Shown here: positions 21,208 to 52,216 of the stretch, in pieces
Position numbering within the stretch: position 1 is the stretch's first letter
How the letters are laid out: every line of letters begins with the position of its first letter
NCBI GenBank assembly: GCA_050951805.1
Contig: JBMNJT010000008.1
Coordinates: 352,001 to 416,000 of the forward strand
Reading direction: 5' to 3'
Length of the DNA stretch: 64,000 nt
DNA from: Bacillota bacterium
GTDB taxonomy: Bacteria; Bacillota; DTU025
Made by a program: the position numbers and the translations under genes
Notes under the pieces: model-generated
The model's database searches: none
What the model saw: only the letters and a program-made list of their open reading frames with translations
Told to the model about the DNA's origin: nothing

Positions 21208-21239
21208 TTTGCCTCTCGCTGAGGGGCGTGGATTGAAAC
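21208..21239 (+). repeat. Solitary type I-C-like CRISPR repeat unit in the clpP leader
   Basis: 32 nt TTTGCCTCTCGCTGAGGGGCGTGGATTGAAAC: GCCTCTC/GAGGGGC hairpin plus the canonical I-C tail GCGTGGATTGAAAC. Confidence 0.75.
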
Positions 21240-21255
21240 CAGAGAGGTGATGGAC

Positions 21256-21849
21256 ATGACCCTCATACCTATGGTTGTTGAACAGACTAGCCGTGGTGAG
21301 CGAGCATATGATATTTACTCCAGGCTTCTGAAAGACAGGATCATCTTCGTTGGGGGCCCGATAGATGACAGTATGGCGAATCTTGTCATAGCGCAGATGC
21401 TTTTCCTGCAGGGCGAAGATCCTGAGAAGGATATCAATCTTTACATCAATAGCCCAGGCGGAGTAGTCACTGCTGGGCTGGCGATATATGATACAATGCA
21501 GTACGTGAAGCCTGATGTTTCCACGGTATGCGTCGGGCTTGCGGCGAGCGCGGCAGCCGTACTCCTTGCTGCGGGCGCGAAGGGCAAGCGTTACGCACTG
21601 CCCTATTCCAGGATAATGGTTCATCAGCCTCATGGAGGCACACAGGGTCAGGCCACAGACATAGAGATACAGGCCAAGGAGATCCTGCGAATTAAAGGAA
21701 TTACCAACGAGATTCTCTCGCGCCACACTGGGCAGCCAATCGAACGGATCGACCGCGACACCGATCGCGACTTTTACATGTCAGCCCAGGAAGCTAAGGA
21801 ATATGGAATCATTGACAGCATTTTCGAGGGCAAGGCTGCAGAGGCTTAG
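21256..21849 (+). CDS. clpP: ATP-dependent Clp protease proteolytic subunit
   Basis: [35 protein letters not shown]; ATG at 21256 follows GAGGTG. Confidence 0.97.
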
Positions 21850-21864
21850 CCGAGGGGTGGTATC

Positions 21865-23130
21865 ATGTTCAAGTACGGTGATGATAAGGGTCAGCTAAGG
21901 TGCTCCTTTTGTGGCAAGGCCCAGGAGCAGGTAAGAAGGCTCATCGCTGGTCCTGGCGTTTACATCTGCGATGAGTGCATTGAGCTGTGCAATGAGATCA
22001 TCGAGGAAGAGTCGGGAATCAGTCCTGACATCGATTTCAGCGAGATCCCAAAGCCGCACGAAATACGCGCCATTCTTGATGAATACGTGATAGGGCAAGA
22101 TGACGCTAAGAAGACGCTCTCGGTTGCCGTGTACAACCATTATAAGAGGATCAGCGCTGCACCCCATGTCGACGACGTGGAGCTGCAGAAAAGCAACATC
22201 TTGCTGCTTGGCCCCACGGGCTGCGGCAAAACATTGCTCGCGCAAACCCTTGCGAAGATACTCAACGTGCCTTTTGCCATATCAGATGCCACTTCTCTTA
22301 CGGAGGCTGGCTATGTGGGCGAGGATGTCGAGAACATTTTGCTCAAGCTGATCCAGAACGCCGACTACGATATCGAGCGCGCGGAAAAGGGAATTGTTTA
22401 CATTGACGAGGTAGATAAGATAGCTAGAAAGTCGGAGAACCCGTCCATAACAAGGGATGTGTCGGGTGAAGGGGTCCAGCAGGCCCTCCTCAAAATACTT
22501 GAGGGGACAGTGGCGAGCGTTCCCCCTCAAGGGGGTCGAAAGCACCCACATCAGGAGTTTATCCAGCTTGACACGACGAATATCCTCTTCATATGCGGCG
22601 GCGCATTTGACGGTCTCGATAGCATAATCGAGAACCGCATCGGTCGAAAGACTTTGGGATTTGGCGCTGAGGTAAAGCCAAAGGTCGACAAGAACATCGG
22701 CGATATCCTCCGTCAAGTTATGCCCGAGGATCTTCTGAAGTATGGTCTGATCCCTGAGTTCATCGGCAGGCTTCCAGTGGTCGTTCCCCTCGACGCCCTT
22801 GATGAGGAGTCGTTGGTTCGGATACTGACTGAGCCGCGGAATGCGCTGGTGAAGCAGTATAGGAAGCTGTTCGAGTTGGACGGCGTGGAGCTCGAGTTCA
22901 CCGACGATTCGCTGGAGGCCGTGGCTCGCAAGGCCATGGAGAGGAATACAGGCGCCAGAGGATTGAGGTCGATCATGGAGCACATTATGCTTGACATAAT
23001 GTACGACATACCTACTCGCACAGATGTGAAGAAGGTCGTCATAACCAAGGAGACCGTGGCTGACGACGGCAAGCCAACCATGGTGTTGGCCGAGAAGAAG
23101 CCGGCGCGCAAGAAGGAAGAGACGGCGTAG
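21865..23130 (+). CDS. clpX: Clp protease ATP-binding subunit ClpX
   Basis: CSFC..CDEC zinc finger, [21 protein letters not shown]. Confidence 0.98.
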
Positions 23131-23215
23131 GGACGGTTTTCCTGGGGAATGCGCGAGTTGACAAGACCTTTATAGACGTTGCTGATAATCCCGGCGTGGC
23201 GCACGGCGTCCGCCG

Positions 23216-23244
23216 GGATAGTTGTTGTTGGCCGGGGCATGCTA
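23216..23244 (+). promoter_or_regulatory. SigF-like promoter of lonB
   Basis: GGATA-N14-GGGCATGCTA; lonB is SigF-dependent in B. subtilis. Confidence 0.4.
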
Positions 23245-23268
23245 CACCGTGGACAGGAGGGATGTTCG

Positions 23269-25011
23269 GTGAGCAACCTCGGCGTGATTGGGTTGATAAA
23301 CCTCTTTTTCGGAATCGTGATCGGTCTTTACTTTTGGAATCTCCTCAAGGTCCAGCAGGGATCGAAAACTGCGGTTGACCGCGATTCTCGCCGTGAAATG
23401 GATAAGCTGCGCGAAATGCGGAGCCTCAGCCTTACCAGGCCGCTTACGGAGTTGACTAGGCCCAAGAGATTTGAAGACGTGGTCGGACAGAAGGATGCGC
23501 TCCTTGCTCTAAAGGCGGCGCTATGCGGGCCCAATCCCCAACATGTGATCCTCTACGGTCCTCCCGGCGTCGGCAAGACGGCGGCTGCTCGGGTTGTGCT
23601 TGAGGAGGCCAAGAAGAGCCCGCTTTCGCCTTTCCGGGCCGATGCTGTTTTCATTGAAATTGATGCCAATACAGCCCGTTTCGATGACCGTGGAATCGCA
23701 GATCCATTGATCGGATCCGTGCACGACCCTATCTATCAGGGTGCGGGTCCTCTGGGAATAGCAGGGGTACCCCAGCCCAAGCCGGGCGCCGTAACCAAGG
23801 CTCACGGGGGTGTGCTTTTCATAGACGAGATCGGAGAACTCCACCCGATTCAGATGAACAAGCTTCTTAAGGTGTTGGAAGACAGGAAGGTCTTCCTGGA
23901 GTCAGCGTACTACAGCCCTGATGATCGCAATATCCCCATGTACATTCACGACATATTCAAGAACGGGCTGCCTGCTGACTTTCGGCTTGTTGGGGCAACT
24001 ACTCGCCCTGCCCACGATATCCCTCCCGCCATTCGATCGAGGTGCCTGGAGATATACTTCAAGGCGTTGACCCCTGAGGAAGTCGGCATCATAGCGTCGC
24101 AAGCTGTTGACAAGATGAACATGCGTGTGGAAGACGGTGTTATTCAGATAGTGACCAAGTATGCGCAGAACGGCAGGGACGCTGTGAATATGGTTCAGCT
24201 CGCCGCCGGCGTCGCCATCACTGAGGGCCGAAAAATGGTGATGCGGTCTGACATGGAATGGGTGGTAGAAAGCGGGCAGTATTCGCCAAGGCCGGAACGG
24301 AAGGTGCCCGATGCTCCGCAGATAGGCATCGTCAACGGACTCGCCGTTTGGGGCCCGGGAATGGGATCGGTGATCCAGGTCGAGGCCTCTGCTGTGCCTG
24401 CAGAGGCCGGGACGGGAAGTTTCATTGTGACCGGAATCGTGGAGGAAGAAGAACAGGGGGACGGCTCGAAGATCCTACGCCGTCGCAGCATGGCGCGGAG
24501 TTCGGTAGACAACGTGTCGACCGTCCTGCGAAACCGGCATGCGCTGCAAGTCGGGGACTACCACATACATGTCAATTTCCCCGGAGGGGCGCCAGTAGAT
24601 GGCCCGTCGGCGGGAATTGCCATGGCTACTGCCGTGTTCTCCGCTGCGAGACAGATACCCATCGACAACAGGGTTGCGATGACCGGTGAGCTTTCGGTGC
24701 ACGGGAAGGTGAAGCCGGTGGGGGGTATTGTCGCCAAAGTTGAGGCCGCAGTGAGCGCGGGGGCTACCCGTGTGCTGATCCCTGCGGAGAACTGGAACGA
24801 GAGGTTTGCGGACCGTGCAGATGTGCAGGTAATCGCAGTGGAGGACATCGATGAGGTTTTGAGAATAGCGGCTTCCTGCAATGCAGCTGAGACCGAACCT
24901 GAAGCGACATGCACACCTTGGCCCGAGGTTGCTGCCGCAGCTAGTTGCCGCAGAGGGGATGCGCCGGGAGGAACGGGTTCGATGCCTCCCACAGTGCAGA
25001 TTACAGGGTGA
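23269..25011 (+). CDS. lonB: Sporulation ATP-dependent protease LonB
   Basis: N-terminal [45 protein letters not shown]; GTG at 23269 follows AGGAGG. Confidence 0.93.
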   Translation: MSNLGVIGLINLFFGIVIGLYFWNLLKVQQGSKTAVDRDSRREMDKLREMRSLSLTRPLTELTRPKRFEDVVGQKDALLALKAALCGPNPQHVILYGPPGVGKTAAARVVLEEAKKSPLSPFRADAVFIEIDANTARFDDRGIADPLIGSVHDPIYQGAGPLGIAGVPQPKPGAVTKAHGGVLFIDEIGELHPIQMNKLLKVLEDRKVFLESAYYSPDDRNIPMYIHDIFKNGLPADFRLVGATTRPAHDIPPAIRSRCLEIYFKALTPEEVGIIASQAVDKMNMRVEDGVIQIVTKYAQNGRDAVNMVQLAAGVAITEGRKMVMRSDMEWVVESGQYSPRPERKVPDAPQIGIVNGLAVWGPGMGSVIQVEASAVPAEAGTGSFIVTGIVEEEEQGDGSKILRRRSMARSSVDNVSTVLRNRHALQVGDYHIHVNFPGGAPVDGPSAGIAMATAVFSAARQIPIDNRVAMTGELSVHGKVKPVGGIVAKVEAAVSAGATRVLIPAENWNERFADRADVQVIAVEDIDEVLRIAASCNAAETEPEATCTPWPEVAAAASCRRGDAPGGTGSMPPTVQITG

Positions 25012-25265
25012 GTGTGTCTGTGCTGCTCAAGATGGGTGCCGGGCGGGCATGCCAAGCTTTGCGGTTATGACTGTCGCCGCCTCGATTGTCCGCGATAGGT
25101 GGGCCTGGGGCGGTGACAGCCTTTTGCATTGTACATGTGGTAGAGTATATGCGAAATCTGAAAGCATCGGGGTTGAGCGGACAGGCTGAAAACAGCTAGG
25201 TGCTGGCAAATGGGATAGAATTGGCACGCCAAGTGGCCAGCTGAAGAGTTTCAGCTAAGTCAAGT

Positions 25266-25294
25266 CTTGTCCCCACGCGGGTGGGGGTGTTTCG
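25266..25294 (+). repeat. Solitary type I-E-like CRISPR repeat unit between lonB and lon
   Basis: 29 nt CTTGTCCCCACGCGGGTGGGGGTGTTTCG with CCCCAC/GTGGGG hairpin, matching the GTxxTCCCCACGCxxGTGGGGGTGTTTC repeat family. Confidence 0.75.
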
Positions 25295-25605
25295 CCAACT
25301 TTGCAAATCAAGGTTGCCCACCAGTCTCGGAGTATTATGGTGACGCAGATCGCTCCCCTAATCCCCAATATGGTATGATTACATTACGGTCCTAATCCTT
25401 TCTCCAGCGGCAAAACAAAGCTGGCGTGTTAACCTGCGGCTTTTTGGGTGGATATGTTGCAATCCTTACTCTCTCATGCTCCCAGAGTGGGCTAATCTCC
25501 AACCCGCCTGTATCCTTTTCGAATACTCCGCTTATCTCCATGAAAAGGGCAGTTTTTCACTTGCCCAGTTCTGCCACGTATTGCATTTACCGAGGCGCTT
25601 TTCTT

Positions 25606-25632
25606 GAAGGAATGCAAAGAGGCAAGGAGAAT
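25606..25632 (+). promoter_or_regulatory. SigH-type promoter of lon
   Basis: GAAGGAATG-N11-GGAGAAT. Confidence 0.45.
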
Positions 25633-25652
25633 AGGTAGAATGCATGTAGGAG

Positions 25653-28145
25653 GTGCTTAATCCCTTGGCTAGAGCGGACAAGTTATCACATAAAGATAGA
25701 GAAAACGTTGCACAGAGTCTGCCGCTTCTTCCTCTCAGGGGAGTTGTGGTCTTTCCTAATACTACCCTTCCGCTTGAGGTTGGAAGGGAGAAGTCGGTGG
25801 CCGCGCTCGAAGAGGCGATGTCATGCGGGAAGCTGATTGTCCTTGCCGCTCAGAAGGTCGCTAAGGTTAATGAGCCATCTCCCGACGACATCTACACGGT
25901 AGGCACAGTGTCAGCGATAAAGCAGTTAGTAAAGTTGCCTGATGGCACTATACGCGTTGTTGTGGAAGGCGTCGAGCGGGCCGTTATCCATGAATATGTA
26001 CAATCCGATCCATGTTACATGGTTCAAGTCGAACTAATGCCGACTGTGGAAGTATGCGACCGCGAGATCGAGGCTCTTGCCCGCAACGCATTGCGTGAAT
26101 TTGAGCAATTCGTCAAACTTTCAAAGAAGATGCCGGTAGAGATAATGCTGGCTATCGGGGGAACGGACGAGCCCGGCAGGCTGGCGGACGATATAGCGGC
26201 TCATATGCCGCTCAGTGTCGAGGACAAGCAGGAGCTTCTCTCGTGCTTTAGCGTTCGAACACGGCTTGAGAGGCTTGCAGTGATCCTCAGACGAGAACTT
26301 GAGATCCTGGAGCTCGAGCGCAAGATCCATTTGCGAGTCAGAAAGCAGATGGAAAAGACCCAGAAGGAATATTACCTTCGCGAGCAAATGCGCGCTATAC
26401 AGAAAGAATTGGGTGACCGAGACGACCCCAGCTCTGAAGCCGCAGAGCTCAGGCAGAAGATTGAGGAGGCCAACTTCCCTCCCGAAGTGCTTGAGAAGGC
26501 CGTTCGCGAGCTTGATAGGCTGGAGAGTATGCCTCCGATGGCGGCCGAGTCTGTCGTGGTCCGAAACTACCTCGACTGGCTCCTCGCTGTTCCGTGGGGT
26601 GTAATGACAGAGGATAGGCTCGATATTGAGCGGGCTGAAGCCATCCTCGATGAGGATCATTGGGGCCTTGACAAGGTCAAAGATAGAATTTTGGAATTTC
26701 TCGCTGTTCGGCAGCTGTCTGACGAGTTGCGCGGACCTATTCTTTGCCTCGTGGGCCCGCCTGGTGTGGGCAAAACCTCACTGGGCAAGTCTGTTGCCAG
26801 AGCCCTCAACAGGAACTTCGTCAGGTTTTCTCTTGGCGGGGTCAGGGATGAGGCAGAGATACGTGGCCATAGGCGCACTTATGTAGGGGCGATGCCGGGC
26901 AAAATAGTTCAGCTTCTCAAGCAAGCGGGCAGCATGAACCCGGTGATTCTCCTCGACGAGATCGACAAGATGTCTGCCGATTTTCGCGGAGATCCGTCAT
27001 CTGCCTTGCTGGAGGTGCTCGATCCCGAGCAAAACTCGGAGTTTGGCGACCACTACATGGAGGTCACGGTGGATTTGTCCAACGTGCTCTTCATCACGAC
27101 CGCCAACAACCTGTATTCCATCCCCCGCCCTCTTCAGGACAGGATGGAGATTATAACGCTTCCGGGCTATACGGAAGAGGACAAGGTGCAGATTGCAACG
27201 CATTTCCTCATCCGCAAGCAGTTGTCGGAGAACGGTCTTTCGGAAGAGAATGTCGTTATCCAGGAAGATGCGGTGCGCGAGATCATCCGCTGTTATACGC
27301 GGGAATCTGGCGTGCGAAGTCTCGAACGCCAGATAGGAGCGATTTGCCGCAAGATTGCCAGAGAAGTAGTGGCGGGGGCAGAAGGGCCTTTCGTCGTTGG
27401 CCGCGCAGATCTTCAGGAGTATCTCGGTGTGCCTCAGTATCGTTACGGCGTTGCCGACCTTGACAGCAAGGTTGGCGTGGCGGTAGGCGTCGCCTGGACT
27501 GAGACTGGCGGCGACACCCTGGACATCGAAGTTTCGGCCATGAAGGGCAGCGGTAAGCTGATCCTCACCGGAAAACTGGGCGACGTTATGCGTGAGTCAG
27601 CCCAGGCCGGATATACTTATGTCAGGTCGCGCGCTCGTGAACTTGGCATCCCAGAGGATTTCTACGAGAAGATGGACGTCCATATCCATGTTCCGGAAGG
27701 CGCAATTCCCAAAGACGGGCCGTCTGCAGGCATAACCATGGCCACTGCTTTGGCCTCGGCTCTCTCGGGCGTCCCTGTGAGAAATGACGTGGCCATGACG
27801 GGCGAGATAACGCTGCGTGGGAGAGTATTGCCAGTGGGCGGGCTTAAGGAGAAGACACTAGCTGCCCATAGAGCAGGCATTCGTACGATGATAATCCCTG
27901 ACGATAACAAGAAGGATCTCGAGGAGTTGCCGGAAAATGTTGCTGGCGACATGACATTCATTGAAGTCTCCCATATGGATGAGGTGCTGGCAATCGCCCT
28001 TCTCTCTGCTAAGGACGATGAAAAGTCATCATTCGGCGCCGACTACGCAGTGGGCGAAGCAGGGGACGAGCAGGGTGGAACCATGAGAGACGTGCCATTG
28101 CCTCACGTTGTTCCCAATACGCCTCAACCGCCGGCTGTGTGCTGA
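25653..28145 (+). CDS. lon: Endopeptidase La
   Basis: [33 protein letters not shown]. Confidence 0.98.
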
Positions 28146-28187
28146 ATTGGGCGAAGGCCCAACATAGATTAATGATGCGATGCGAAC

Positions 28188-28212
28188 TAGGGCGCCCCGA
28201 CGGGGCGCCCTG
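28188..28212 (+). terminator. GC-rich hairpin after lon
   Basis: AGGGCGCCCCG-A-CGGGGCGCCCT. Confidence 0.5.
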
Positions 28213-28419: not shown

Positions 28420-28470
28420 TTGACATTGGGACAAATTGAGTGTATGCTTTTCCTGAGTTGTTGAACAACT
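28420..28470 (+). promoter_or_regulatory. SigA promoter plus GntR-type operator
   Basis: TTGACA-N17-TATGCT (28420-28448); palindrome AGTTGTT-G-AACAACT (28456-28470). Confidence 0.65.
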
Positions 28471-34797: not shown

Positions 34798-35078
34798 GTG
34801 GCAGAACAATTGACTCGCATTTCCCATAAAGCGTGAACTGCTCCGATATCGCCGAAGTTGAGATGCTTGTCGATTTCCGGCGGCATATATGACAATCATT
34901 GAAGGAGTTGATGCCGGAGAAGTCGAATACTCATGGGACGAATATGCAACGTTGCATAAACTATCTGCGGCGTGATTTCTGGCGGCCATGTAGGTTCCTG
35001 ATTCGCCATGGTTTCGTATCCATGACCCCCTAGATGGGGGTGTGCTGATGACTTGGTGGGCAATATACTGAGGAAGCA

Positions 35079-35106
35079 GTCTTTCCCACGCAGGTGGGAT
35101 GCGCCT
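35079..35106 (+). repeat. Degenerate type I-E-like CRISPR repeat in the leader of the arcE-like gene
   Basis: GTCTTTCCCACGCAGGTGGGATGCGCC versus family pattern GTCTTCCCCACGCAGGTGGGGGTG; TCCCAC/GTGGGA hairpin intact. Confidence 0.55.
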
Positions 35107-35129
35107 TGAAAGGACGGGATGTGTAAGAC

Positions 35130-40037: not shown

Positions 40038-40091
40038 CAATCTGCCTGCGCGGCAGAGTGTGCGCATGCTATACTTGAAAATGATAATGGC

Positions 40092-40451
40092 AAACGCGAT
40101 GAAAGGGAGGAGTAGTGCGGTTAAGCTGCAAGAGAGGGATGCCCACCGGGTGGAAGGCGTCCTGGCCTCTGTCCGCGCGAAGGTCGCCCCGGAGCGGTTG
40201 GCGTGAACCAGGTTTGCTGCAGCCTGAGTGAGGCATGCAGGCAAAAGTAGCGTCAATCGGGACTGCCCGTTATAGCTTGAAAGATCGAAGTGAGTATCTG
40301 AGCCGGCTCGCCCATGACGGCAAAAGGGCTATACGGCCCTGGTCGGGCATTCTATCGGCTGCATGCCGGAGGGATGCTTGCTTTGAACAAAGGTGGTACC
40401 GCGAAGGAACGCCTCCTTCGCCCTTTGGTGGGCGGGGAGGCGTCTGTTTTT
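40092..40451 (+). ncRNA. T-box riboswitch (Val)
   Basis: GA motif and AGTA, AGAGAG distal stem I, specifier GTC at 40183-40185, T-box AAGGTGGTACCGCG at 40390-40403, terminator hairpin with TTTTT. Confidence 0.92.
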
Positions 40452-40518
40452 CAAAATGTGTCGGACACATCCTGCGACGCCTGCAGGCATGTCCGCGGCT
40501 ACAGGAGGAAAGAAGCTC

Positions 40519-43179
40519 ATGGGCACAACAGAGATATCGACTACTTACAACCCGAAAGAGATTGAGGAAAAGACTTACCAGTTCTGGCTCGAGCGTGGCT
40601 ATTTCCATGCAGAGCCCGACCCGGATCCTGAGAGGGAGCATTTCGTTATCTTAATGCCCCCGCCCAATATCACGGGGACGCTCCACATAGGGCATGCCCT
40701 CGACGTCACGATCCCGGACATTCTGATCAGATGGAAGCGGATGCAGGGGGCCAACGTCTGCTGGATACCGGGCACAGACCATGCTAGCATCGCCACTGAG
40801 GCCAAGGTCGTGGCGAGCCTTGCAAAGGAAGGCCTCTCCAAGACGGACATAGGCCGTGAGCGCTTTCTCGAGATCGCGTGGGAGTGGAAGGAGAAGTATG
40901 GTGGAGAGATAGTGGAGCAGCAGAAGAAGCTGGGCGCGTCGTGCGATTGGGACAGGAAACGTTTCACCATGGACCCTGTATGCTCCAAGGCTGTGCGCGA
41001 GGTATTCGTGAGGCTTTTCGAGAAGGGGCTCATCTACCGGGGCGATCGGATGATCAACTGGTGTCCGAATTGCAGAACCTCGTTATCGGATGTAGAGGTG
41101 GAGCACGAAGACGTTGAATCGGCTCTGTGGCATCTGCGCTATCCGCTGGCTGATGGATCCGGGCACGTGGTAGTTGCCACGACGCGCCCTGAAACTATGC
41201 TGGGCGATACCGCGGTCGCTGTGAACCCGAAGGACCCGAGGTACGCCAAGCTCGTCGGGAAAACCCTCATCTTGCCCATTATGGACAGGGAGATCCCGAT
41301 TGTTGCCGATGCCCACGTAGACCCGGAGTTTGGAACCGGGGCCGTGAAAGTCACTCCAGCGCATGACCCTGATGACTTTGAAATCGGCGAAAGGCACGGA
41401 CTAGCCTCGGTGAAGGTCATAGGCCCTGATGGTATCATGACTGAGGAGGCAGGGAAGTATGCCGGCATGACCCGGGAAGAGTGCAGGCGCCAAGTGGTGG
41501 AGGAATTGAAGAGCGCGGGCCTGCTGGAGAAGATCGAAAGCTACGAGCATGCGGTCGGCCATTGCCAGCGGTGCGGCACTGCGGTAGAACCCATGGTGTC
41601 GAGGCAGTGGTTTGTGAAGATGAAACCCCTGGCCGAACCGGCAATTGAGGCGGCGAAAGACGGAAGAGTGAGATTCGTTCCGGAAAGGTTCACCAAAACC
41701 TATCTTAACTGGATGGAGAACGTGCGCGATTGGTGTATATCCCGTCAGCTTTGGTGGGGCCATCGAATACCCGTCTGGTACTGCACCAGCTGCGACCACA
41801 TGTTCGCCTCCAGGGAAGACGCCACTTCATGCCCGAAATGCGGCGGACAAGTGGAGCAGGACCCTGATGTGCTCGACACCTGGTTCAGCTCGGCGCTGTG
41901 GTCTTTTTCGACCATGGGATGGCCTGAAGAAACTCCGGAGCTTAAAAGCTGGCATCCAACCTCAGTGTTGGTGACAGGGTACGACATCATCTTCTTCTGG
42001 GTTGCTAGGATGATCTTTATGAGCCTGGAGTTCATGGGCGAGGAGCCATTTTCCGATGTGCTCTTGCACGGGCTGATCAGGAATCCCGATGGTTCCAAGA
42101 TGAGCAGGTCGAAGGGGACAGGTGTCAACCCGCTCGAGATCATCGAAGAGTATGGCGCCGACACGCTCAGATTTACTCTGATCACAGGGAATACCCCTGG
42201 AAACGATATTAGGTGGCGTCCGGAGAAAGTGGAGGCTTCCCGCAATTTCTGCAACAAGATATGGAATGCGAGCAGGTTCGTGATGATGAACCTCGAGGAC
42301 TTCACCTTGCCCGAGGGCAAAGTGATGCCGGAAGATCTGGAGTTGAACCTTGCTGACAGGTGGATCATATCGCGCATGAACAGAGTGGCTGCCGACATCA
42401 CTGAGCAACTCGGAAGATACGACATGGGCGAAGCGGCGCGGACTATATACGATTTCGTATGGGGCGAGTATTGCGACTGGTATATAGAGATAGCCAAGCG
42501 CCGCCTGTACGGAGAGGACGATCCAGTCGGCAGGCGTACAGCCCAGTACGTTTTGTGGAAGGTGTTGGACGGTTCACTCAAGATGCTCCATCCCTTTATG
42601 CCATTCATCACCGAGGGCATTTGGCAGCATTTGCCCGGCTCAGGCGAGAGCATAATGATAGAGCCCTGGCCTACAGCGGATAAAGACGAGATCGACGCTG
42701 TGGCCGAAGCCGAGATGGCCGTTTTGATGGAGACGGTGAGAGCCATCAGGAACATCAGGGCTGAGTTCAACGTTGAACCAGGCAAGAAGGTGGACGCAAT
42801 ATTCCACGCAGACGGTGAGGCGTTCGACACTATCAACGTCAATGTGGACATCGTTGCCCACCTTGCGGGACTTGCCAGCGTGACTGTGGAGCATGTGTCT
42901 GCGGCTAAACCAGAGAAAGCTGCTGCAGCGGTTGTGCCAGGGATAGAAGTCTATCTTCCCCTTGCGGGGATGGTCGACATCGGCAAGGAGACCAACAGGT
43001 TGCGCCGCGAGGAGGAGAACCTCCTGCGCGAGGTGAAATCCGCCCGCGCGAAGCTCTCCAATGAAGGCTTCGTTACAAAGGCTCCTGCCGAAGTAGTTCA
43101 GAAGCAACGCGACAGACTCGGGGAGTATGAGGAGCAGTTGGTGAAGATCAGAGCTAGAATAGCTCAGCTAGAGGGATAA
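40519..43179 (+). CDS. valS: Valine-tRNA ligase
   Basis: PPPNITGTLHIGH, DWCISRQLWWGH, KMSRS, C-terminal coiled coil. Confidence 0.98.
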   Translation: MGTTEISTTYNPKEIEEKTYQFWLERGYFHAEPDPDPEREHFVILMPPPNITGTLHIGHALDVTIPDILIRWKRMQGANVCWIPGTDHASIATEAKVVASLAKEGLSKTDIGRERFLEIAWEWKEKYGGEIVEQQKKLGASCDWDRKRFTMDPVCSKAVREVFVRLFEKGLIYRGDRMINWCPNCRTSLSDVEVEHEDVESALWHLRYPLADGSGHVVVATTRPETMLGDTAVAVNPKDPRYAKLVGKTLILPIMDREIPIVADAHVDPEFGTGAVKVTPAHDPDDFEIGERHGLASVKVIGPDGIMTEEAGKYAGMTREECRRQVVEELKSAGLLEKIESYEHAVGHCQRCGTAVEPMVSRQWFVKMKPLAEPAIEAAKDGRVRFVPERFTKTYLNWMENVRDWCISRQLWWGHRIPVWYCTSCDHMFASREDATSCPKCGGQVEQDPDVLDTWFSSALWSFSTMGWPEETPELKSWHPTSVLVTGYDIIFFWVARMIFMSLEFMGEEPFSDVLLHGLIRNPDGSKMSRSKGTGVNPLEIIEEYGADTLRFTLITGNTPGNDIRWRPEKVEASRNFCNKIWNASRFVMMNLEDFTLPEGKVMPEDLELNLADRWIISRMNRVAADITEQLGRYDMGEAARTIYDFVWGEYCDWYIEIAKRRLYGEDDPVGRRTAQYVLWKVLDGSLKMLHPFMPFITEGIWQHLPGSGESIMIEPWPTADKDEIDAVAEAEMAVLMETVRAIRNIRAEFNVEPGKKVDAIFHADGEAFDTINVNVDIVAHLAGLASVTVEHVSAAKPEKAAAAVVPGIEVYLPLAGMVDIGKETNRLRREEENLLREVKSARAKLSNEGFVTKAPAEVVQKQRDRLGEYEEQLVKIRARIAQLEG

Positions 43180-46094: not shown

Positions 46095-46178
46095 GTGGTA
46101 TTACACAAGAATAGAAGTATCTACTGAGGCGGGGCCATGCCCCGTACCGGATGAATCGAGCAAAGGAAGGGATATCAC

Positions 46179-46778
46179 ATGCCGGCGAAGCGATCGTCCT
46201 CAGGCAATGCTCTGTCATGGATCCTTGCAGTGGTCTTGATAAGCGTGGCCGCGGTCGGGGTTGGCTGGCTCATCGGGCAGCAAGTGCTGGGCTGGATTAA
46301 CCCGAACCGAAGCTCAGTATCTGAAGAAGACTCAGGAGATACTGGAGGTTACAGCTATTATCCATGGAGCGGGTCGGATGGAGCAGAAAGTGCGTCCCAG
46401 CAGCCACAGCAGACGCCTGCTCCCAACATCAATCTACCCACAAGCAGTCTGCCCGAAAGCAGCGCGGTTGAGCCCCCTACATACGGGGCAGAAAGCTCAT
46501 CAGTACCCAGTTCTGTTCCGGATAGCATTGGTTCGACACAAGACATGGTTTCCAGTCCCGTTGCTGCTAAGTTTTACAAGGTACGTGTGGGTTCTTTCGG
46601 CACAAAGGAGGCTGCGGCGGCCACCGCCAGGGAGCTCGAAGCTCAAGGTTATCCGATATTCGTCACAGGTGGTGGTCCATGGTCTGTCCAAGTTGGAGCG
46701 TTTTCGCTTAGGGAGAATGCCATTGTGCTAGGCGACATCCTTGCAAATCAGGGCTACGACGTTACAATAGTTGAATAG
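46179..46778 (+). CDS. Membrane-anchored SPOR-domain protein (SpoIIB/FtsN-like architecture)
   Basis: N-terminal TM, Ser/Pro-rich linker, YKVRVGSF..K..A and VQVGAF SPOR repeats. Confidence 0.8.
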   Translation: MPAKRSSSGNALSWILAVVLISVAAVGVGWLIGQQVLGWINPNRSSVSEEDSGDTGGYSYYPWSGSDGAESASQQPQQTPAPNINLPTSSLPESSAVEPPTYGAESSSVPSSVPDSIGSTQDMVSSPVAAKFYKVRVGSFGTKEAAAATARELEAQGYPIFVTGGGPWSVQVGAFSLRENAIVLGDILANQGYDVTIVE

Positions 46779-46974
46779 CTGTGCGCATGCCATTTCCAGG
46801 GCTAATGAAACAGGCGTTGGCGCGTGGAGCGTCCGCCATGGGCGGCAACGATCGGTTATGCGCGGTAGTTTGCGGAGCGATCAGCAATAATGATACAGGC
46901 CCGGTCCGGGCGCAAAAAGTGTGGGCCGGGCCAGGCGCTTTTTGGATGAGTGTCGGGTCCATAGTCTTGAATAC

Positions 46975-47006
46975 GCCGCTCCTTGAGTAGGAGCGTAGAG
47001 TGAAAC
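46975..47006 (+). repeat. Solitary type I-C-like CRISPR repeat unit in the DRTGG operon leader
   Basis: 32 nt GCCGCTCCTTGAGTAGGAGCGTAGAGTGAAAC; perfect 7-bp stem CGCTCCT/AGGAGCG; tail differs from GTGGATTGAAAC at 2 positions. Confidence 0.65.
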
Positions 47007-47019
47007 GAGGGAGCGAGGC

Positions 47020-47403
47020 TTGAAGCTTGCAGACATCCGGGAGCTGATAGGGGCGGAGGTCCTTGTTGGGGAGGACAAGCTTTCCACTGTTGAGATCGAA
47101 ATGGCGTGCGGCTCGGACCTCATCAGTGACGTGCTGGCATTTTGTCATGACAAGACGCTTCTTTGCACGGGGCTCGTCAGCGCGCAGGTTGTTCGCACGG
47201 CGGAGATCGCTGGGTTGTCCACGATAATATTCGTTCGGGGGAAAAGGCCTGATGAGAGTGTCATAGAGATGGGCAAGGCTGCCGGAATCCCAATGCTTGC
47301 AACGGATCTTCCGATGTTTGAAACTTGTGGCTTGCTATATGGCGCTGGCGTTGGCGGCATCTGCCTTGGCGCCGATGGGAGCAGGCGAGGAGATGTCGGA
47401 TAG
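47020..47403 (+). CDS. DRTGG-domain protein
   Basis: CGSDLISDVL, TGL, VVRTAE, VRGK. Confidence 0.85.
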   Translation: MKLADIRELIGAEVLVGEDKLSTVEIEMACGSDLISDVLAFCHDKTLLCTGLVSAQVVRTAEIAGLSTIIFVRGKRPDESVIEMGKAAGIPMLATDLPMFETCGLLYGAGVGGICLGADGSRRGDVG

Positions 47404-47903
47404 TGTATCGCGGTGGCAATGATGGACAAGCCATTGATCGGGCTAGTGCTGCCTTTTCTGGGGCAGCCAGTCCTCACTCGGAACCGGTGCTAGAGATGAG
47501 CTTTCGAGTCGACCGATACGATTTCGCTGCAGCCGGCGAGGCGGCCAGCAAGATCAAACAGGTTCTGAGGCAATTGGGCATGGCACCCGAGTTGGTACGC
47601 CGTGCGGCAGTGGCAGCGTACGAGGCAGAGATGAACCTAGTCATACACTCGGAGGGCGGACAGATCCTTCTCCGTGTGGACACGGAGAAGGTGACGCTTG
47701 TCGCTTGCGATGGAGGACCGGGAATGCCCGATGTTTCCTTGGCAATGCGCGAAGGCTACTCAACAGCGCCGGATGAGATAAGGGAGATGGGGTTTGGGGC
47801 CGGAATGGGGCTTCCGAACATGAAGAGGTGTTCTGATTCGTTTTCAATAGAATCTGAGGTGGGACGCGGGACGACTGTGACCGCAGCAATCAGGATAGCC
47901 TAG
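47403..47903 (+). CDS. Anti-sigma/RsbT-like HATPase Ser/Thr kinase
   Basis: YEAEMNLVIH, DGGPG, GYSTAP, GFGAGMGLPN; likely GTG start at 47403. Confidence 0.85.
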   Translation: MYRGGNDGQAIDRASAAFSGAASPHSEPVLEMSFRVDRYDFAAAGEAASKIKQVLRQLGMAPELVRRAAVAAYEAEMNLVIHSEGGQILLRVDTEKVTLVACDGGPGMPDVSLAMREGYSTAPDEIREMGFGAGMGLPNMKRCSDSFSIESEVGRGTTVTAAIRIA

Positions 47904-47955
47904 AGAAGGAGAGCAGCCAAAACCGTGGCAGTTCGCGTTCCATGGGGAGGTTGAA

Positions 47956-49296
47956 ATGGGCATGGAGGGCCGGTTCCATTCTGTGAAACTCCTCGAGGAA
48001 AAATGCAAAGGCTGCACCAACTGCATTAAGCGTTGCCCGACTGAGGCAATCAGAGTTCGGGAAGGAAAAGCTGTAATCAACGCTGCCCGATGCATCGATT
48101 GCGGAGAGTGCGTGAGAACCTGCGAAAACCACGCCAAGACCATTATCGCTAACTCCATCGACGACCTCAAAAACTACGATTATACTATTGCTCTACCGGC
48201 GCCGGCTCTGTACTCGCAACTAGGCCGGGCCTCAGGCCCTGACGAGGTGGTATGGGCTCTTCAGGAGATCGGCTTTGACGCAGTGTGCGACGTATCCTTT
48301 GGCGCAGATATCGTTACCGAGTGTACGCGCAGACACCTAATATCCCATCCTAAGCCTCGGCCGGTGATTTCCGCGGCGTGTCCGGCCGTAGTCCGCTTGA
48401 TTCAGGTGAGATACCCCAACCTCATTTCCCACGTAGCCCGAGTTGAGAGCCCTATGTACGCTGCGGCCCGTGTAGCCCGAGTTGAAGCCGCCGAGAAGCT
48501 CGGCATAGCGGGCGATCGCATCGGCGTGTTTTTCATCTCTCCTTGTGCGGCCAAGGTAACAGCGGTTATTGCCCCATTGGGATCAGAGTTTTCGTGCGTG
48601 GACGGTGCGATTTCGATATCAGACATATACGGCGAACTCATGACTGAGCTAGGACGAGGACGCAGCGCCCGGCCCATGCACAGAGGGTCGAACCTTGGGT
48701 TTGCATGGGCAAACAGCAGTGGAGAACTGAAGGCGTTGGGACTTCATAACGTCTTGGCTGTGGACGGAATACACAATGTTCTGGGACTCCTTGAAGAGGT
48801 AGACAACGGCAGGCTGGCAGGGGTGGACTACATCGAAGCCTTGGCATGTCCTGCGGGGTGTGTTGGAGGTCCGGCTACAGTCGAGAACCCCTTCGTTGCG
48901 CGGGCGCGTATGATCGAGATCTCAAAAGCTGTGGAGGCTGATTCCGCTGAAGCTCTCTCCGAGGCAAGGCGGCTGGTAGATGAGCGCGGGACAGATTTCT
49001 TCGCTCTCCAGGGCGAGCTTACGGCCCTCTCAGGTCTTGAGATCGATCCGCGCCTCGAAGTAGCCATTGCCAAAATGAGTGAGCTGGAGCGAGTTTTGGC
49101 TCGGCTTCCGGGCTTAGATTGCGGTGCCTGCGGGTCGCCAACTTGCCGTGCCCATGCAGAAGATGTTGTGTGCGGGAATGCATCTGAAGTAGATTGCGTG
49201 TTCAAGCTGAGAGAGGCCATGGAAGAGGTGGCCGAGGAGCTCCTCAGATTGGCCAAGACGGATCTTCCGTCGCTGCAGAGGAGGAACGACAAGTGA
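47956..49296 (+). CDS. [FeFe]-hydrogenase-like protein (2x4Fe-4S, divergent H-domain, C-terminal FeS domain)
   Basis: CKGCTNC..CP, CIDCGEC, SAACPAV, SPCAAK, EALACPAGCVGG, LDCGACGSPTC. Confidence 0.85.
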   Translation: MGMEGRFHSVKLLEEKCKGCTNCIKRCPTEAIRVREGKAVINAARCIDCGECVRTCENHAKTIIANSIDDLKNYDYTIALPAPALYSQLGRASGPDEVVWALQEIGFDAVCDVSFGADIVTECTRRHLISHPKPRPVISAACPAVVRLIQVRYPNLISHVARVESPMYAAARVARVEAAEKLGIAGDRIGVFFISPCAAKVTAVIAPLGSEFSCVDGAISISDIYGELMTELGRGRSARPMHRGSNLGFAWANSSGELKALGLHNVLAVDGIHNVLGLLEEVDNGRLAGVDYIEALACPAGCVGGPATVENPFVARARMIEISKAVEADSAEALSEARRLVDERGTDFFALQGELTALSGLEIDPRLEVAIAKMSELERVLARLPGLDCGACGSPTCRAHAEDVVCGNASEVDCVFKLREAMEEVAEELLRLAKTDLPSLQRRNDK

Positions 49297-49637
49297 CTGT
49301 TCGGGAGATAGCTGCCGTTTTGGGAATGAAATGCGTGGCGGGAGGCGTAGGGCTGGACAGGGAGGTCTCATCCGGATACGTTTCAGATTTGCTCAGCGAT
49401 GTCATGGCGAATGCAAGTGATGGCGGGATATGGGTTACTTCACAAGTTCACCAGAATGTTGTTGCTGTTGCGCTCCTGCTCGATCTCGCAGCTGTCGTGA
49501 TCGCAGGGGGGCTTGAGATGAATGAGGATGCCATTGCCAGGGCAGAGGCGGAAGGCATGCCAATCCTGTCCACCAAGATGTCGGCGTTCGAGACAGTCGG
49601 CAGACTATACGAGCTGGGCGTGAGGGGAGATTCCTAG
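49293..49637 (+). CDS. Second DRTGG-domain protein
   Basis: GYVSDLLSDVM, WVT.Q.H.NVVAVA; GTG at 49293 follows GAGGAGG. Confidence 0.85.
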   Translation: MTVREIAAVLGMKCVAGGVGLDREVSSGYVSDLLSDVMANASDGGIWVTSQVHQNVVAVALLLDLAAVVIAGGLEMNEDAIARAEAEGMPILSTKMSAFETVGRLYELGVRGDS

Positions 49638-49639
49638 GG

Positions 49640-50383
49640 ATGGTTCAGGGCTTCGCCGCCGATCTGCACATTCACACTTTCCTATCGCCATGCGCGGGCA
49701 GGGAGATGAACCCGAAGGCAATCGTGGGGCGGTGCTTGGACCTAGGGCTCGACATAATTGCCTCTGCAGATCACAACTCAGCCGCCAACGTTGAGGCTTT
49801 GGCTGCGGCGGCAGAGGGGACTGGACTTACCGTCATCTGTGGCATGGAGGTTTGCACAAAGGAAGAGGTTCATCTGTTGACATTGCTGCCAGATTTGTCT
49901 GCCATGCATGAATGGGAGCTGATAGTTGCACCCCATAGAGCTACCGGCAGGAACATCCCGGAAATATTCGGAAGGCAGTGGATTTGTTCGCCGCGCACTG
50001 GAGATATCACAGAGGAGACCGCGCTCTTGTCCGCCCCAACAACGCTATCCGTGGACGAAGTCGTGGATGGCGTTGACGCCTTGGGGGGCATTTCGGTTCC
50101 ATGCCATATCGACAGGCGTGCTTTCAGCATCGTAGCCCAGCTAGGATTTGTCCCGGACCACCTCGACATTCCCGTACTGGAGATATCCAGGACGATTACG
50201 GCAACCGAGGCCAGAGCGAGGTTTCCTGCGACGCAAGGCCGCGTCCTGCTCTCTTCCTCCGATGCCCACACTTTGGAAGAAATCGGATTGGGATGCTCGC
50301 TCTTTTGGCTGGAAGAACCGACATTTGCTGAATTAATTCTTGCTCTTCGCGGAGAGGCAGGAAGATACGTGCAAGTGGAGTAA
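49640..50383 (+). CDS. PHP-domain phosphoesterase
   Basis: DLHIHT.LSPC, DHN, GMEV..KEEVH, HIDR, SSDAH. Confidence 0.88.
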   Translation: MVQGFAADLHIHTFLSPCAGREMNPKAIVGRCLDLGLDIIASADHNSAANVEALAAAAEGTGLTVICGMEVCTKEEVHLLTLLPDLSAMHEWELIVAPHRATGRNIPEIFGRQWICSPRTGDITEETALLSAPTTLSVDEVVDGVDALGGISVPCHIDRRAFSIVAQLGFVPDHLDIPVLEISRTITATEARARFPATQGRVLLSSSDAHTLEEIGLGCSLFWLEEPTFAELILALRGEAGRYVQVE

Positions 50384-50444
50384 AGGCGATTGCTTATAGC
50401 GGATTTTCCGTGCTGGGCAGAGTATACAGAAATGGCGGTGTGGT

Positions 50445-50987
50445 ATGAGGGAGCTTTCAATGCACATACTCGATATAGCGCAAAACTCGATAGCTGCCGG
50501 CGCAGAGCTTGTTGAGATCGATGTTATCGAGGATGTGGCCAACGACAAGATGATTATCAGGGTTGCCGATGATGGCCGGGGAATGCCTGCCGACGTCGTG
50601 GCGCAGATCCGCGATCCATTCGTTACATCGAGGACTACCCGCCGAGTCGGACTGGGGATTCCGCTATTGGCTGCAGCTGCTGAAAGATGCGGTGGCGGAG
50701 TGGACATAGCGAGCGTGCCTGGCGGTGGCACGACTGTAACAGCTATTTTTGAGTATTCTCACGTCGACCGGGCGCCCTTGGGCAACATGGCAGAAACCCT
50801 TCTTGCATTGGTAGTATGCAACCCAAACCTGGATTTCGTGTATAATCATGTTCGAGGAGATAATTCATTTCATTTTGATACCCGAGAGATTCGATTGGAG
50901 TTGGGCAGCATCCCTCTGTCGGACCCGGAGGTCGTAGCGTTTATTCGTGATTTCGTAGCAGAGGGCGAAAGGAGGCTGGATGCATGA
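50445..50987 (+). CDS. Stand-alone HATPase_c (histidine-kinase-like) protein
   Basis: HILDIAQNS, DDGRGM, DPF.TSRTTRRVGLG, SHVDR.PLG. Confidence 0.87.
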   Translation: MRELSMHILDIAQNSIAAGAELVEIDVIEDVANDKMIIRVADDGRGMPADVVAQIRDPFVTSRTTRRVGLGIPLLAAAAERCGGGVDIASVPGGGTTVTAIFEYSHVDRAPLGNMAETLLALVVCNPNLDFVYNHVRGDNSFHFDTREIRLELGSIPLSDPEVVAFIRDFVAEGERRLDA

Positions 50988-51472
50988 GGCAGTTTGGCAT
51001 TGTGAAGCGGGTTTGCGGAGAATCCGTGGAAGTCCTGGTCAGCCGTCCGGCAGCCTGTAAGGGCTGCGGAGCTTGCCAGATGGCGAATAATCGTCCCCAT
51101 ACCGTGATTGCGAGAAACGATGCCTCGGCGGAAGTAGGCGACACAGTGGCATTGGAACTTCCCGGACAAGATCTCATGCGCGCAGTCCTTCTCGCCTATG
51201 GAGTGCCATTGGTCATGTTCCTTGCCGGGCTGGGAGTGGGTGCGCTTGCAGCCCGGAGCTTCGGATGGACGATAGACTCGTCTCTTGCTTCCGCTATAGG
51301 GGGAATTCTCTTTCTAGCTGCCGGCTACTACGGAATTCACCTCTACGATCGTTCTCTTGGAACGGAAGCTTTTGCATCTGTTGCCGTGGCTGTGGTGGAT
51401 TCGAACAACCCTGAGTGTGCGTCGATTCATTCAGGGGCTGGGCGGGTTGAGGATACGGAGGAGACCGAATGA
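50984..51472 (+). CDS. RseC/MucC-family membrane FeS protein
   Basis: AC.GCGAC, VGD.V, AYGVPL, two TMs. Confidence 0.82.
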   Translation: MRQFGIVKRVCGESVEVLVSRPAACKGCGACQMANNRPHTVIARNDASAEVGDTVALELPGQDLMRAVLLAYGVPLVMFLAGLGVGALAARSFGWTIDSSLASAIGGILFLAAGYYGIHLYDRSLGTEAFASVAVAVVDSNNPECASIHSGAGRVEDTEETE

Positions 51473-52134
51473 AGCAGGAGAAGATACCAGATGTAGTTGT
51501 AAGGAGGCTTCCACTGTACCTACGCGCAGTGGAAGACTTTGATCGCAGGGAACATGCAATCGTCTCATCTAGTCAGCTAGGGGAGTGGACAGGGTTGACT
51601 CCGGCGCAGGTTAGAAAGGACCTTGCGTTTTTCGGAGAATTTGGCAAGCAAGGCATTGGTTACAATGTAAAGTTCTTGCATGAACAACTAAGGGAGATAC
51701 TTGGCCTTACCACAGATGTTCGCGTGGGCCTGGTTGGCCTGGGAAATCTGGGCCGCGCCTTGCTCCATCATAATGTAGATGCTCGCATCGACGGCTCAGC
51801 CGTAGAAGGCGACCCTGCCCGTTGGGTCCCTGAAAGCCTGCGTATTGTCGCCGCTTTCGATGTGGACCCACAAAAAGTGGGTATTACCTATGCCCAGGTC
51901 CCAGTCTACCACGTAGATGAGCTTGCTGCGAAAGTCCGCGAGCTCGACCTGAAGATTGTAGTTATTGCAGTTACGCCTGAGAGCGCGGGAGCTGTTGCTA
52001 GCGAATGCGTGAAAGCGGGGGTCAAGGCTATCCTGAATTTTGCCCCTGTAAAGCTTGATGTGCCTGAAGATGTAAAGGTCCATTCGGCGGACCTCACGTT
52101 GGAGCTACAGAGCCTTGCGTTTTATACTCGCTGA
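51469..52134 (+). CDS. rex: Redox-sensing repressor Rex
   Basis: RRLPLYLR, QVRKDL..FG.FG..G.GY, G.GNLG.AL, ILNFAP. Confidence 0.96.
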   Translation: MKQEKIPDVVVRRLPLYLRAVEDFDRREHAIVSSSQLGEWTGLTPAQVRKDLAFFGEFGKQGIGYNVKFLHEQLREILGLTTDVRVGLVGLGNLGRALLHHNVDARIDGSAVEGDPARWVPESLRIVAAFDVDPQKVGITYAQVPVYHVDELAAKVRELDLKIVVIAVTPESAGAVASECVKAGVKAILNFAPVKLDVPEDVKVHSADLTLELQSLAFYTR

Positions 52135-52184
52135 GCATGTGCGAGGAATGTCGCAAGGCCAGCGACGCTATAGAACTCGATCAT

Positions 52185-52216
52185 GTTGCCCCTCGCGTGG
52201 GCGCGGGGGACGAAAT
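52185..52216 (+). repeat. Degenerate type I-C-like CRISPR repeat unit downstream of rex
   Basis: 32 nt GTTGCCCCTCGCGTGGGCGCGGGGGACGAAAT; 25/32 identical to the pattern GTCGCGCCCCGCGTGGGCGCGTGGATTGAAAT. Confidence 0.5.

Follow-up and report, generated by a model that had tools for sequence, protein, structure and literature searches.

Solitary CRISPR-repeat copies in housekeeping-gene leaders of a Bacillota genome in which their cognate Cas proteins were not found

Solitary CRISPR repeats precede housekeeping genes

Here we describe single copies of CRISPR repeats in the chromosome of a Bacillota bacterium (assembly G000: 2.75 Mb, 8 contigs, 54% GC, completeness rating 97%). The window that we analyzed is a stretch of 64,000 nucleotides (G000:C8:352001-416000), and all unit coordinates given without a contig prefix are window positions. 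An earlier note on this window had flagged five hairpins as CRISPR-repeat units. Four of them are solitary repeat copies as judged from their sequences: units 1, 3 and 5 are copies of a type I-C repeat and unit 2 is a copy of a type I-E repeat. Unit 4 is a chance hairpin. Units 1, 3 and 5 belong to a genome-wide family whose well-kept members stand alone, in sense orientation, directly 5' of ribosome-binding sites. Stem pairing is conserved at orthologous leaders, and no cognate cas genes were found in the genome. We conclude that the units are most likely CRISPR-repeat-derived leader hairpins that are now without Cas partners, and we lean towards a role for them in cis, as parts of the leader RNA. 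Housekeeping-gene leaders appear to be a new setting for solitary repeats, the known ones being anti-CRISPR RNAs of phages and plasmids and regulators in cas loci.

The units and the window features that bear on them are as follows.

21138..21161, + strand: 24-nt block 5' of unit 1, identical in all three genomes of the genus (alignment A3)
21208..21239, + strand: unit 1, solitary I-C-type repeat in the tig-clpP spacer, 27/32 identical to the I-C array repeat of the relative G012; 3-nt flank, 6-bp stem (21211-21216 with 21222-21227), 5-nt loop, 12-nt tail (21228-21239)
21247..21849, + strand: clpP open reading frame (Pfam CLP_protease, E = 2.1e-86)
25266..25294, + strand: unit 2, solitary I-E-type repeat, 24/29 identical to the I-E array repeat of G012
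35079..35107, + strand: unit 4, located in a leader that belongs to a CobW-domain GTPase gene; an ordinary GC hairpin that the tests run did not show to be CRISPR-like
46975..47006, + strand: unit 3, solitary I-C-type repeat, 24/32 identical to the G012 repeat, recovered by the geometry scan described below
47020..47403, + strand: first gene of the operon behind unit 3, encoding a DRTGG-domain protein (Pfam DRTGG)
52185..52216, + strand: unit 5, decayed I-C-type solitary unit, 23/32 identical to the G012 repeat

The hairpins are copies of type I-C and type I-E repeats

Unit 1 has the layout of the genome's own type I-C repeat, which survives in a remnant at C4:100981 (3 nt, 6-bp stem, 5-nt loop, 12-nt tail). 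The last 14 nt of the two sequences are identical, and the 12-nt tail of unit 1 occurs twice in the genome when both strands are counted, once in unit 1 and once in the C4 repeat. As a probe chosen without regard to the earlier note or to hairpins, we used the I-C array repeat of G012 and scored ungapped identity over 32 nt across 5.5 Mb of strand sequence. Eight genome sites reached at least 23/32, compared with a mean of 0.35 for 40 shuffled probes. These were C2:313124 (28), unit 1 (27), the C4 repeat (26), unit 3 (24), C2:792641 (24), unit 5 (23), C8:57142 (23) and a second remnant at C2:15523 (23). Solitary units account for six of the eight (Poisson P = 1.9e-6 for six or more), and the three in the window are those that had been described as I-C-like 32-mers.

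A scan by geometry gave a similar picture. Requiring a perfect 6-bp stem (G-U allowed, three or more G-C pairs), a loop of 5 nt and an adjoining tail with at least 10/12 matching positions, we obtained five matches in the whole genome: the C4 repeat, unit 1 (tail 12/12), unit 3 (tail 10/12), C8:57142 and C2:313124. With 100 shuffled tails as decoys the mean was 0.28 (P = 2e-4 for at least four solitary matches), and C3:83462 was added when one stem mismatch was permitted. Units 1 and 3, C8:57142, C2:313124 and C3:83462 are the five well-kept I-C units, chosen without regard to genes. Aligned with one another, the five average 79% column identity, whereas their flanks are unrelated by eye. The best-kept parts of the family are the stem base and the 3' tail.

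A covariance model (R1) built from five solitary units only recovered the genuine C4 I-C repeat with E = 1.4e-6. Units 1 and 3, both among its five training sequences, scored 41.6 and 39.3 bits, and unit 5 scored 17.8 bits (E = 0.18 genome-wide). R1 also picked up further decayed copies in G000 and, in relatives, the I-C arrays of G001, G004, G009, G012, G013, G021 and G024. In all, the I-C-like solitary family of G000 comprises at least five well-kept and about seven decayed units, with more in relatives. Across 20 family members from five genomes, in an alignment that had been fitted to the model, 95.7% of cells are paired and two of the six stem pairs change on both sides, which agrees with the earlier description of stems that vary while pairing is kept. 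Because the consensus of the solitary units lies closer to the array repeat of G012 than to the genus's own remnant repeat, the I-C copies probably derive from another or an older I-C variant.

Of the two hairpins that had been called I-E-like, the assignment holds for unit 2 and fails for unit 4. Unit 2 is the only site in the genome with at least 22/29 identity to the 29-nt I-E repeat of G012 (mean of 0.15 for 60 shuffled probes), and its gapped score of 9 compares with a null maximum of 3 over 30,000 windows. Unit 4 is missing from the 171 genome-wide sites with ungapped I-E matches of at least 18/29 and has no significant match in Rfam. Of random 40-mers, 0.08% attain its gapped I-E score or better, a rate at which 64 kb should hold dozens of equal sites. 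A family uniting units 2 and 4 was also considered, based on ten CCCAC-N(3-5)-GTGGG palindromes, three of which are preceded by GTCTT; it was rejected because the third GTCTT palindrome falls within a coding gene and unit 4 did not pass as I-E.

The Rfam CRISPR-DR models gave no match to any unit at E <= 10 over the whole window, and scores on 151-nt cut-outs were at noise level (17.7-20.1 bits). The genuine I-C repeat itself reaches only 20.2 bits where the cut-off is 45, so the Rfam test has no power for type I-C.

The units stand alone. No second repeat copy was found near any of them by BLAST against the genome, by a model search of the window or by comparison of flanks; no partial repeat lies within about 100 bp, and apart from matches to themselves the units have no BLAST match longer than 15 nt, the longest being to the real I-C repeat. 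The many near-identical copies and shared flanks that mark dispersed repeats of the repetitive extragenic palindrome (REP) or miniature inverted-repeat transposable element (MITE) type were not seen. Consensus scans found no promoter belonging to the units, and there were no intrinsic terminator-like sites (0) in four regions scanned around units 1, 2, 3 and 5. No mobile-element context was found either, the neighbors including tig, clpP, clpX, lon, the gene for an ABC-transporter binding protein, the DRTGG/Rex operon, an aminotransferase gene and hut genes.

Well-kept units face adjacent ribosome-binding sites

All five hairpins of the window are on the + strand and flanked by + strand genes, as the earlier note had reported. 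Unit 1 lies between the genes for trigger factor (tig) and clpP. It ends 16 nt before the likely clpP start, ATG 21256, which follows a GAGAGG ribosome-binding site. Unit 3, with its 6-bp stem, 5-nt loop and tail matching at 10/12, follows a SPOR-domain gene and ends 13 nt before TTG 47020, the start of an operon in which the first DRTGG gene is followed by genes for HATPase, Fe-hydrogenase-like, DRTGG, PHP, HATPase, RseC and Rex-like proteins. Unit 4 lies between the ABC-transporter binding protein gene upstream and the CobW-domain GTPase gene downstream, 22 nt before ATG 35130. These are the three units that had been said to end near start codons. Unit 2 occupies the 641-nt spacer between a LonB-like gene and lon, whose start at 25653 is 358 nt downstream. 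Unit 5 is not a leader: it sits 3' of the Rex-like gene of the DRTGG operon, between the end of that gene (52134) and a strong hairpin at about 52245-52268, with no ribosome-binding-site start within 45 nt. Read by eye, its stem register differs from the I-C layout and its tail is shorter.

We scored a unit as start-proximal when a ribosome-binding site and the start of an open reading frame of at least 100 codons followed within 3-45 nt. This predicate holds for 7.8% of random positions and, in a set of 7003 generic hairpins that share the units' geometry, for 9.2%. All five well-kept units satisfied it in sense orientation, lying 16, 13, 21, 31 and 28 nt before a start with a ribosome-binding site (P = 6.6e-6). 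The genes behind them are clpP, the DRTGG operon, a class I/II aminotransferase gene, a formiminotransferase gene (hut, followed by an amidohydrolase gene) and an alpha/beta hydrolase gene. When the decayed copies were included, 7 of 12 units satisfied the predicate (P = 2.9e-5). Three of the five well-kept units are located between divergent genes and each faces the adjoining gene, which makes the orientation informative.

Relatives show the same trend. There, 6 of 11 solitary units met the predicate within 60 nt, with a background of 10.4% (P = 3.6e-4), and a seventh precedes a 93-codon L27 gene. Other downstream proteins in relatives have thiolase-, L9- and BMP-type-lipoprotein-like N-termini, read by eye. 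Taken together, sense orientation and proximity to a ribosome-binding site are strongly enriched over the controls, in the direction that the earlier note had anticipated.

Stem pairing is conserved at two orthologous leaders

Two further genomes, G001 and G002, belong to the same genus as G000, and G001 is the I-C-positive sister. The clpP leader aligns in all three, with the 24-nt invariant block followed by the hairpin and tail. The block contains AATAAT and may be the -10 region of a clpP promoter; the consensus promoter scan gave no match at 21138..21161. Across the genus the 3' arm of the clpP hairpin is near-constant and the 5' arm shows C/T variation opposite G. In G002, the tail has 9 of 12 positions as in G000 and the unit scores 17.2 bits with the solitary-unit model. 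The hairpin was not seen, by eye, in four clpP leaders from other genera.

The aminotransferase unit is present in G000 (39.3 bits) and in G001 (39.1 bits), and at none of 12 loci of other genera. The two copies differ at 10 of 32 positions, distributed as 3/12 in the tail, 5/8 in the loop and 5' flank and 2/12 in the stem, where pairing is kept in both genomes through G-U. Because G-U pairs form in the sense RNA only, these stem changes keep pairing only there.

Of the leaders that the earlier note had named for a conservation check, that of clpP keeps its unit in relatives. At the DRTGG operon, unit 3 is specific to G000 and neither G001 nor G002 aligns across it. The spacer of unit 2 cannot be aligned with that of G001. 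The unit 4 hairpin is kept in G001 together with its whole leader, and a single C-to-T change retains a G-U pair.

Type I-C effector genes were not found in the genome

The window contains neither a CRISPR array nor a cas gene, in agreement with the earlier note; the arrays and cas loci of the genome lie on C2 and C4. A long array with a 30-nt repeat (C2:147980-152840) adjoins a type I-B operon (Cas7/Csh2, Cas5b, Cas3, Cas4, Cas1b), and the I-B Cas6 gene is at C2:155066-155434. At the start of C2, an array with a 36-nt repeat lies beside cmr1-6 (type III-B), Csx15 and a Csb2-C-terminal-like protein. At 6683-10237 of this locus (L002, C2:1-12000), Cmr6 is split into two overlapping open reading frames and is followed by Csx15 and then by a protein of 260 aa whose match to type I-G Csb2, a Cas5-Cas6 fusion, is confined to the C-terminal half of Csb2.

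Two remnants represent type I-C. In the remnant at C4:100981-101072 (L047), a spacer of 34 nt separates a 32-nt repeat from a second one that is cut short after 26 nt, and an open reading frame for a group II intron reverse transcriptase/maturase follows. In the genome, no match of the spacer exceeds 20 nt with 2 mismatches (17 matching bases at the most). The remnant at C2:15523-15553 (L048) is a leader-like stretch with one degenerate repeat, 27/30 identical to the C4 repeat. No cas genes lie beside either remnant.

Searches with TIGR01863 and TIGR01876 gave no match in G000, and the Cas5d control for TIGR01876 was silent in every control genome. The Cas6e models PF08798 and TIGR01907 also gave no match in G000; their control was positive in Thermus thermophilus and silent in Escherichia coli, so the sensitivity of the Cas6e search is limited. 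When the I-C proteins of G001 and G004 were compared with G000 by tblastn, the only matches were to the I-B Cas7 and Cas3. We conclude that G000 has probably lost the I-C effector genes and, because no I-E genes were found either, that the units are cas-orphaned there. The earlier note had proposed that Cas5d and Cas6e couple the units to host genes. With no Cas5d, Cas8c or Cas6e found, the proposed enzymes cannot act in G000.

We surveyed 25 genomes of the lineage. Both systems occur in it, as had been supposed: Cas8c was found in 6 of 25 genomes (G001, G004, G012, G013, G021 and G023) and Cas6e in 6 of 25 (G002, G003, G011, G012, G013 and G015), the G003 match being below the family cut-off. 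The solitary-unit model had matches at E <= 0.05 in 13 of 25 genomes. Five of the six Cas8c genomes have listed array matches to the model, as do G009 and G024, where Cas8c was not found. Only isolated model matches were seen in G003, G007, G014 and G020, the one at G003:C34 lying inside an I-E array. The 11 genomes with neither a model match nor Cas8c include several incomplete ones.

Three loci of relatives hold I-C repeats or repeat-like sequences in other arrangements. At the trailer end of the G003 I-E array (L070, G003:C34:10299-13154, minus strand, about 1297-1385 of the reverse complement), two degenerate I-E repeats enclose a 32-nt spacer that is I-C repeat-like (21.6 bits with the solitary-unit model); apparently, the I-E system of G003 acquired this spacer from an I-C repeat. 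In G004 (L085, G004:C30), positions 1428-1531 form a mini-array, and therefore not a solitary unit, in which a 35-nt spacer separates a degenerate repeat from a near-perfect I-C one. In G012 (L080, G012:C205), I-C repeat copies at 1458-1489 and 1627-1658 are 137 nt apart, far from array spacing, and the second precedes a 401-codon open reading frame.

RNA contigs bridge the unit upstream of clpP

The RNA data were assembled Logan contigs, which cannot show ends, strand or level; neither joints nor starts or ends of molecules were listed for them. The clpP stretch was present in 20 runs from 12 studies of sludge and digester samples, six of the runs being RNA libraries. Contigs were mapped for four RNA runs over a 20-kb stretch excluding units 3 and 5, and in all four they bridge tig, unit 1 and clpP. 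Contig depth over unit 2 was 0-4, and depth was low over 25003-25669, which is no evidence of ends.

Contigs also revealed variation near units 2 and 4. A contig of run X17 has a 25-nt insertion at 25251, 15 nt 5' of unit 2, which represents strain variation. In the unit 4 leader (34947-35129), contigs of three runs begin at 34947, 34958 and 35026, which again is no evidence of ends; this CobW-domain GTPase leader has a 9-nt insertion behind 35025 in two runs and no Rfam family match.

Two specific leader mechanisms were considered. In a conceivable anti-Shine-Dalgarno switch, the CTCCT of the 5' arm could pair with the ribosome-binding site; this pairing appeared only in the minimum-energy fold of C3:83462 (z = -3.57). 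Translational coupling through a short leader reading frame was suggested, by eye, by a 5-codon frame ending with TGA 21248-21250 over ATG 21250 and by a 7-codon frame ending over TTG 47020; the other three well-kept units show no such frame, and the coupling was rejected.

A putative role in cis and its alternatives

The well-kept units would be carried in ordinary mRNAs, in the sense of a CRISPR RNA (crRNA) and directly 5' of the ribosome-binding sites of housekeeping genes, where selection seems to keep the stem-loop. We hypothesize that the leader hairpin acts in cis, setting mRNA stability or processing and ribosome access, and on balance we favor such a role on the sequence comparisons described above. 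In I-C-positive relatives, the same hairpin and tail could also be a substrate of Cas5d, and cleavage at the stem's 3' base would give an 11-nt handle together with a 5' untranslated region (UTR) that is short and defined. The best-kept parts of the family, the stem base and the tail, are where Cas5d recognition is described as strongest (PMC3973291, citing Nam et al.). As a component of the cis role, a real Cas5d link in relatives is doubtful.

An extended version of the hypothesis is that this anaerobic-digester Bacillota lineage has domesticated CRISPR repeats as cis leader modules, with clpP, L27, L9, thiolase and redox and amino-acid operons as examples, and that Cas5d cuts or occupies them where type I-C is present. 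Core expression would then be coupled to the state of CRISPR-Cas, abundant mRNAs would buffer the assembly of Cascade, and the arrangement would be a natural counterpart of engineered Cas6 insulators. We regard this version, too, as doubtful. If the hairpins do affect mRNA fate, CRISPR repeats would be a source of new cis-regulatory RNA parts, and in I-C-bearing relatives a crRNA-processing nuclease could reach core metabolism and proteostasis. If they are inert, the units still record the loss of two CRISPR-Cas systems.

Several observations weigh against a function in leaders or a link to Cas proteins. Position is not uniform: no start codon is near units 2 and 5, five of the seven decayed copies, or the units at G004:C12 and G012:C195, and at G007:C185 and G003:C71 an orthologous unit lies directly past a stop codon. 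The conservation of the tail is partly built into the scans, which selected on the tail. Profile models found no Cas8c, Cas5d or Cas6e in G000, and preservation does not track cas: the clpP tail is perfect in cas-less G000 and the unit is worst kept in I-C-positive G001, where it has a 15-nt tail insertion and E > 1. Turnover within the aminotransferase unit (10/32) exceeds that of the adjoining promoter block. In the DRTGG leader of G001, an unrelated 8-bp hairpin occupies, by eye, the place of unit 3, so any hairpin, not specifically one of CRISPR origin, may be what is needed. The leaders of four of the five well-kept units fold no more stably than shuffled sequences (z -0.5 to +0.2). Finally, RNA libraries may include DNA, so the bridging contigs do not prove transcription.

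The units could instead be neutral relics, repeats that were scattered by recombination or mis-integration under active I-C and I-E systems and are decaying without function, those still seen being simply the harmless ones. We consider this possible, though unlikely. The loss of the cognate cas genes from G000, the graded series of decayed copies, the lack of leader context at units 2 and 5 and the high turnover inside units are all consistent with it, as is the I-C repeat-like 32-mer carried as a spacer in the G003 I-E array, which indicates that adaptation machinery does move repeat-sized pieces. Relics do not predict, however, that all five well-kept units are in sense orientation no more than 31 nt from a start (P = 6.6e-6), nor the trend in relatives, nor the pairing-preserving stem changes at two orthologous leaders, and Shmakov et al. 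report that repeat-like sequences are depleted from intergenic regions outside cas loci (bioRxiv 10.1101/2023.03.03.530964). The Cas1-Cas2 integration scars offered as an alternative in the earlier note found no support: at 0 of 7 units did flanking duplications exceed the 95th percentile of random sites, and scars would explain neither the position nor the orientation of the units. That the hairpins are chance GC structures unrelated to CRISPR is very improbable. It is the explanation that applies to unit 4, and Rfam CRISPR-DR has no significant match to any unit, but Rfam misses the genome's genuine I-C repeat too, and units 1, 2, 3 and 5 are outliers when scored with the real repeats of relatives.

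Two other explanations assign the units an action on or by Cas proteins. As host-borne decoys, units on abundant mRNAs might titrate the Cas5d/Cas7 or Cas6e of incoming or resident systems in trans, in the way known for phage- and plasmid-borne solitary repeats, one of type I-C among them (PMC10651486). Some carriers are indeed abundant messages, namely clpP in G000 and L27, L9 and thiolase in relatives, and the G000 units belong to two subtypes, cas genes of neither having been found there. A decoy has no need to adjoin a ribosome-binding site, however, the units are off mobile elements with no promoter of their own found, and no acr-like neighbors were seen; we judge this explanation improbable. 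Still less probable is that a resident non-cognate enzyme, either the I-B Cas6 or the Csb2-C-terminal-like protein, continues to cut the units through a shared tail. Both candidate genes are present in G000. By eye, the last 8 nt of unit 1 equal the last 8 nt of the reverse-complemented 36-nt repeat at C2:1-180, which likewise has a 6-bp stem followed by a 12-nt tail. Against this, Cas6 enzymes are usually specific for their own repeat, the stems and loops differ, and the exact 8-mer is present in unit 1 only. Among these explanations, the one we favor remains that of repeat-derived leader hairpins acting in cis.

Comparison with known solitary repeats and leader hairpins

Solitary repeat units (SRUs) are known from viruses and plasmids, and many are RNA anti-CRISPRs (Racrs), including a validated I-C one (PMC10651486). 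The G000 units resemble them in consisting of a single repeat copy with hairpin and tail, outside arrays and away from cas genes. SRUs and Racrs are described on mobile elements, often directly past their own promoter, near acr genes and in hosts of the matching subtype (PMC10651486), whereas the G000 units are chromosomal, lie inside housekeeping mRNAs by ribosome-binding sites and are in some cases conserved between species. The part of a review that we draw on (PMC8616872) mentions solitary units for viruses only. Our non-exhaustive literature search found no solitary repeats in housekeeping-gene leaders; published supplementary lists may hold chromosomal cases.

Inside cas loci, standalone repeats and mini-arrays act as crRNA-like regulators, and repeat-like sequences are described as depleted elsewhere (bioRxiv 10.1101/2023.03.03.530964). 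Given this depletion, the lineage would be a directly testable exception. CreA, CreR and the crRNA-like RNAs (crlRNAs) share with the units that degenerate repeats have been co-opted beyond immunity (PMC9458426; bioRxiv 10.1101/2023.03.03.530964). Those regulators are usually built of two repeats that flank a promoter-pairing spacer, are located in or beside cas loci and act in trans via Cascade, whereas the units of the window occur singly and lie far from any cas locus. A target search with the 33 nt after unit 2 found no genome match beyond 13 nt. The I-C units are also like the repeats of I-C arrays, with the same 32-nt length and the same layout of stem, loop and tail, and with up to 28/32 identity to the repeat of a relative; unlike such arrays, the G000 units have no spacers or tandem copies, and no Cas5d, Cas8c or I-C Cas7 was found.

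Synthetic biologists place Cas6/Csy4 cleavage hairpins before ribosome-binding sites as RNA "insulators". The likeness is a repeat hairpin that directly precedes an unrelated gene's ribosome-binding site; insulators are man-made with the nuclease supplied, whereas the G000 arrangement is natural and any nuclease action on it is putative. Gram-positive mRNAs have 5'-proximal stabilizing stem-loops, which the units resemble as short GC leader hairpins just 5' of a ribosome-binding site. Those stem-loops, unlike the units, form no common sequence family and do not resemble CRISPR repeats. Related to the Cas6/Csy4 insulators is an engineered tool that places a direct repeat (DR) in a UTR (PMC11988398).

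Other features of the window and genome

A T-box leader at 40090-40428 of the window (86.2 bits, Rfam cut-off 93) precedes a 928-codon open reading frame at 40393-43179. Elsewhere in the genome, C2:1262986 (+) and C2:1256899 (-) carry identical inverted 7-bp hairpins with tails like the genome's I-B repeat, and these hairpins probably belong to a duplicated element. The window also contains tRNA genes at 3752-3824, 19095-19168 and 19263-19336, two of which are just upstream of the trigger-factor gene.

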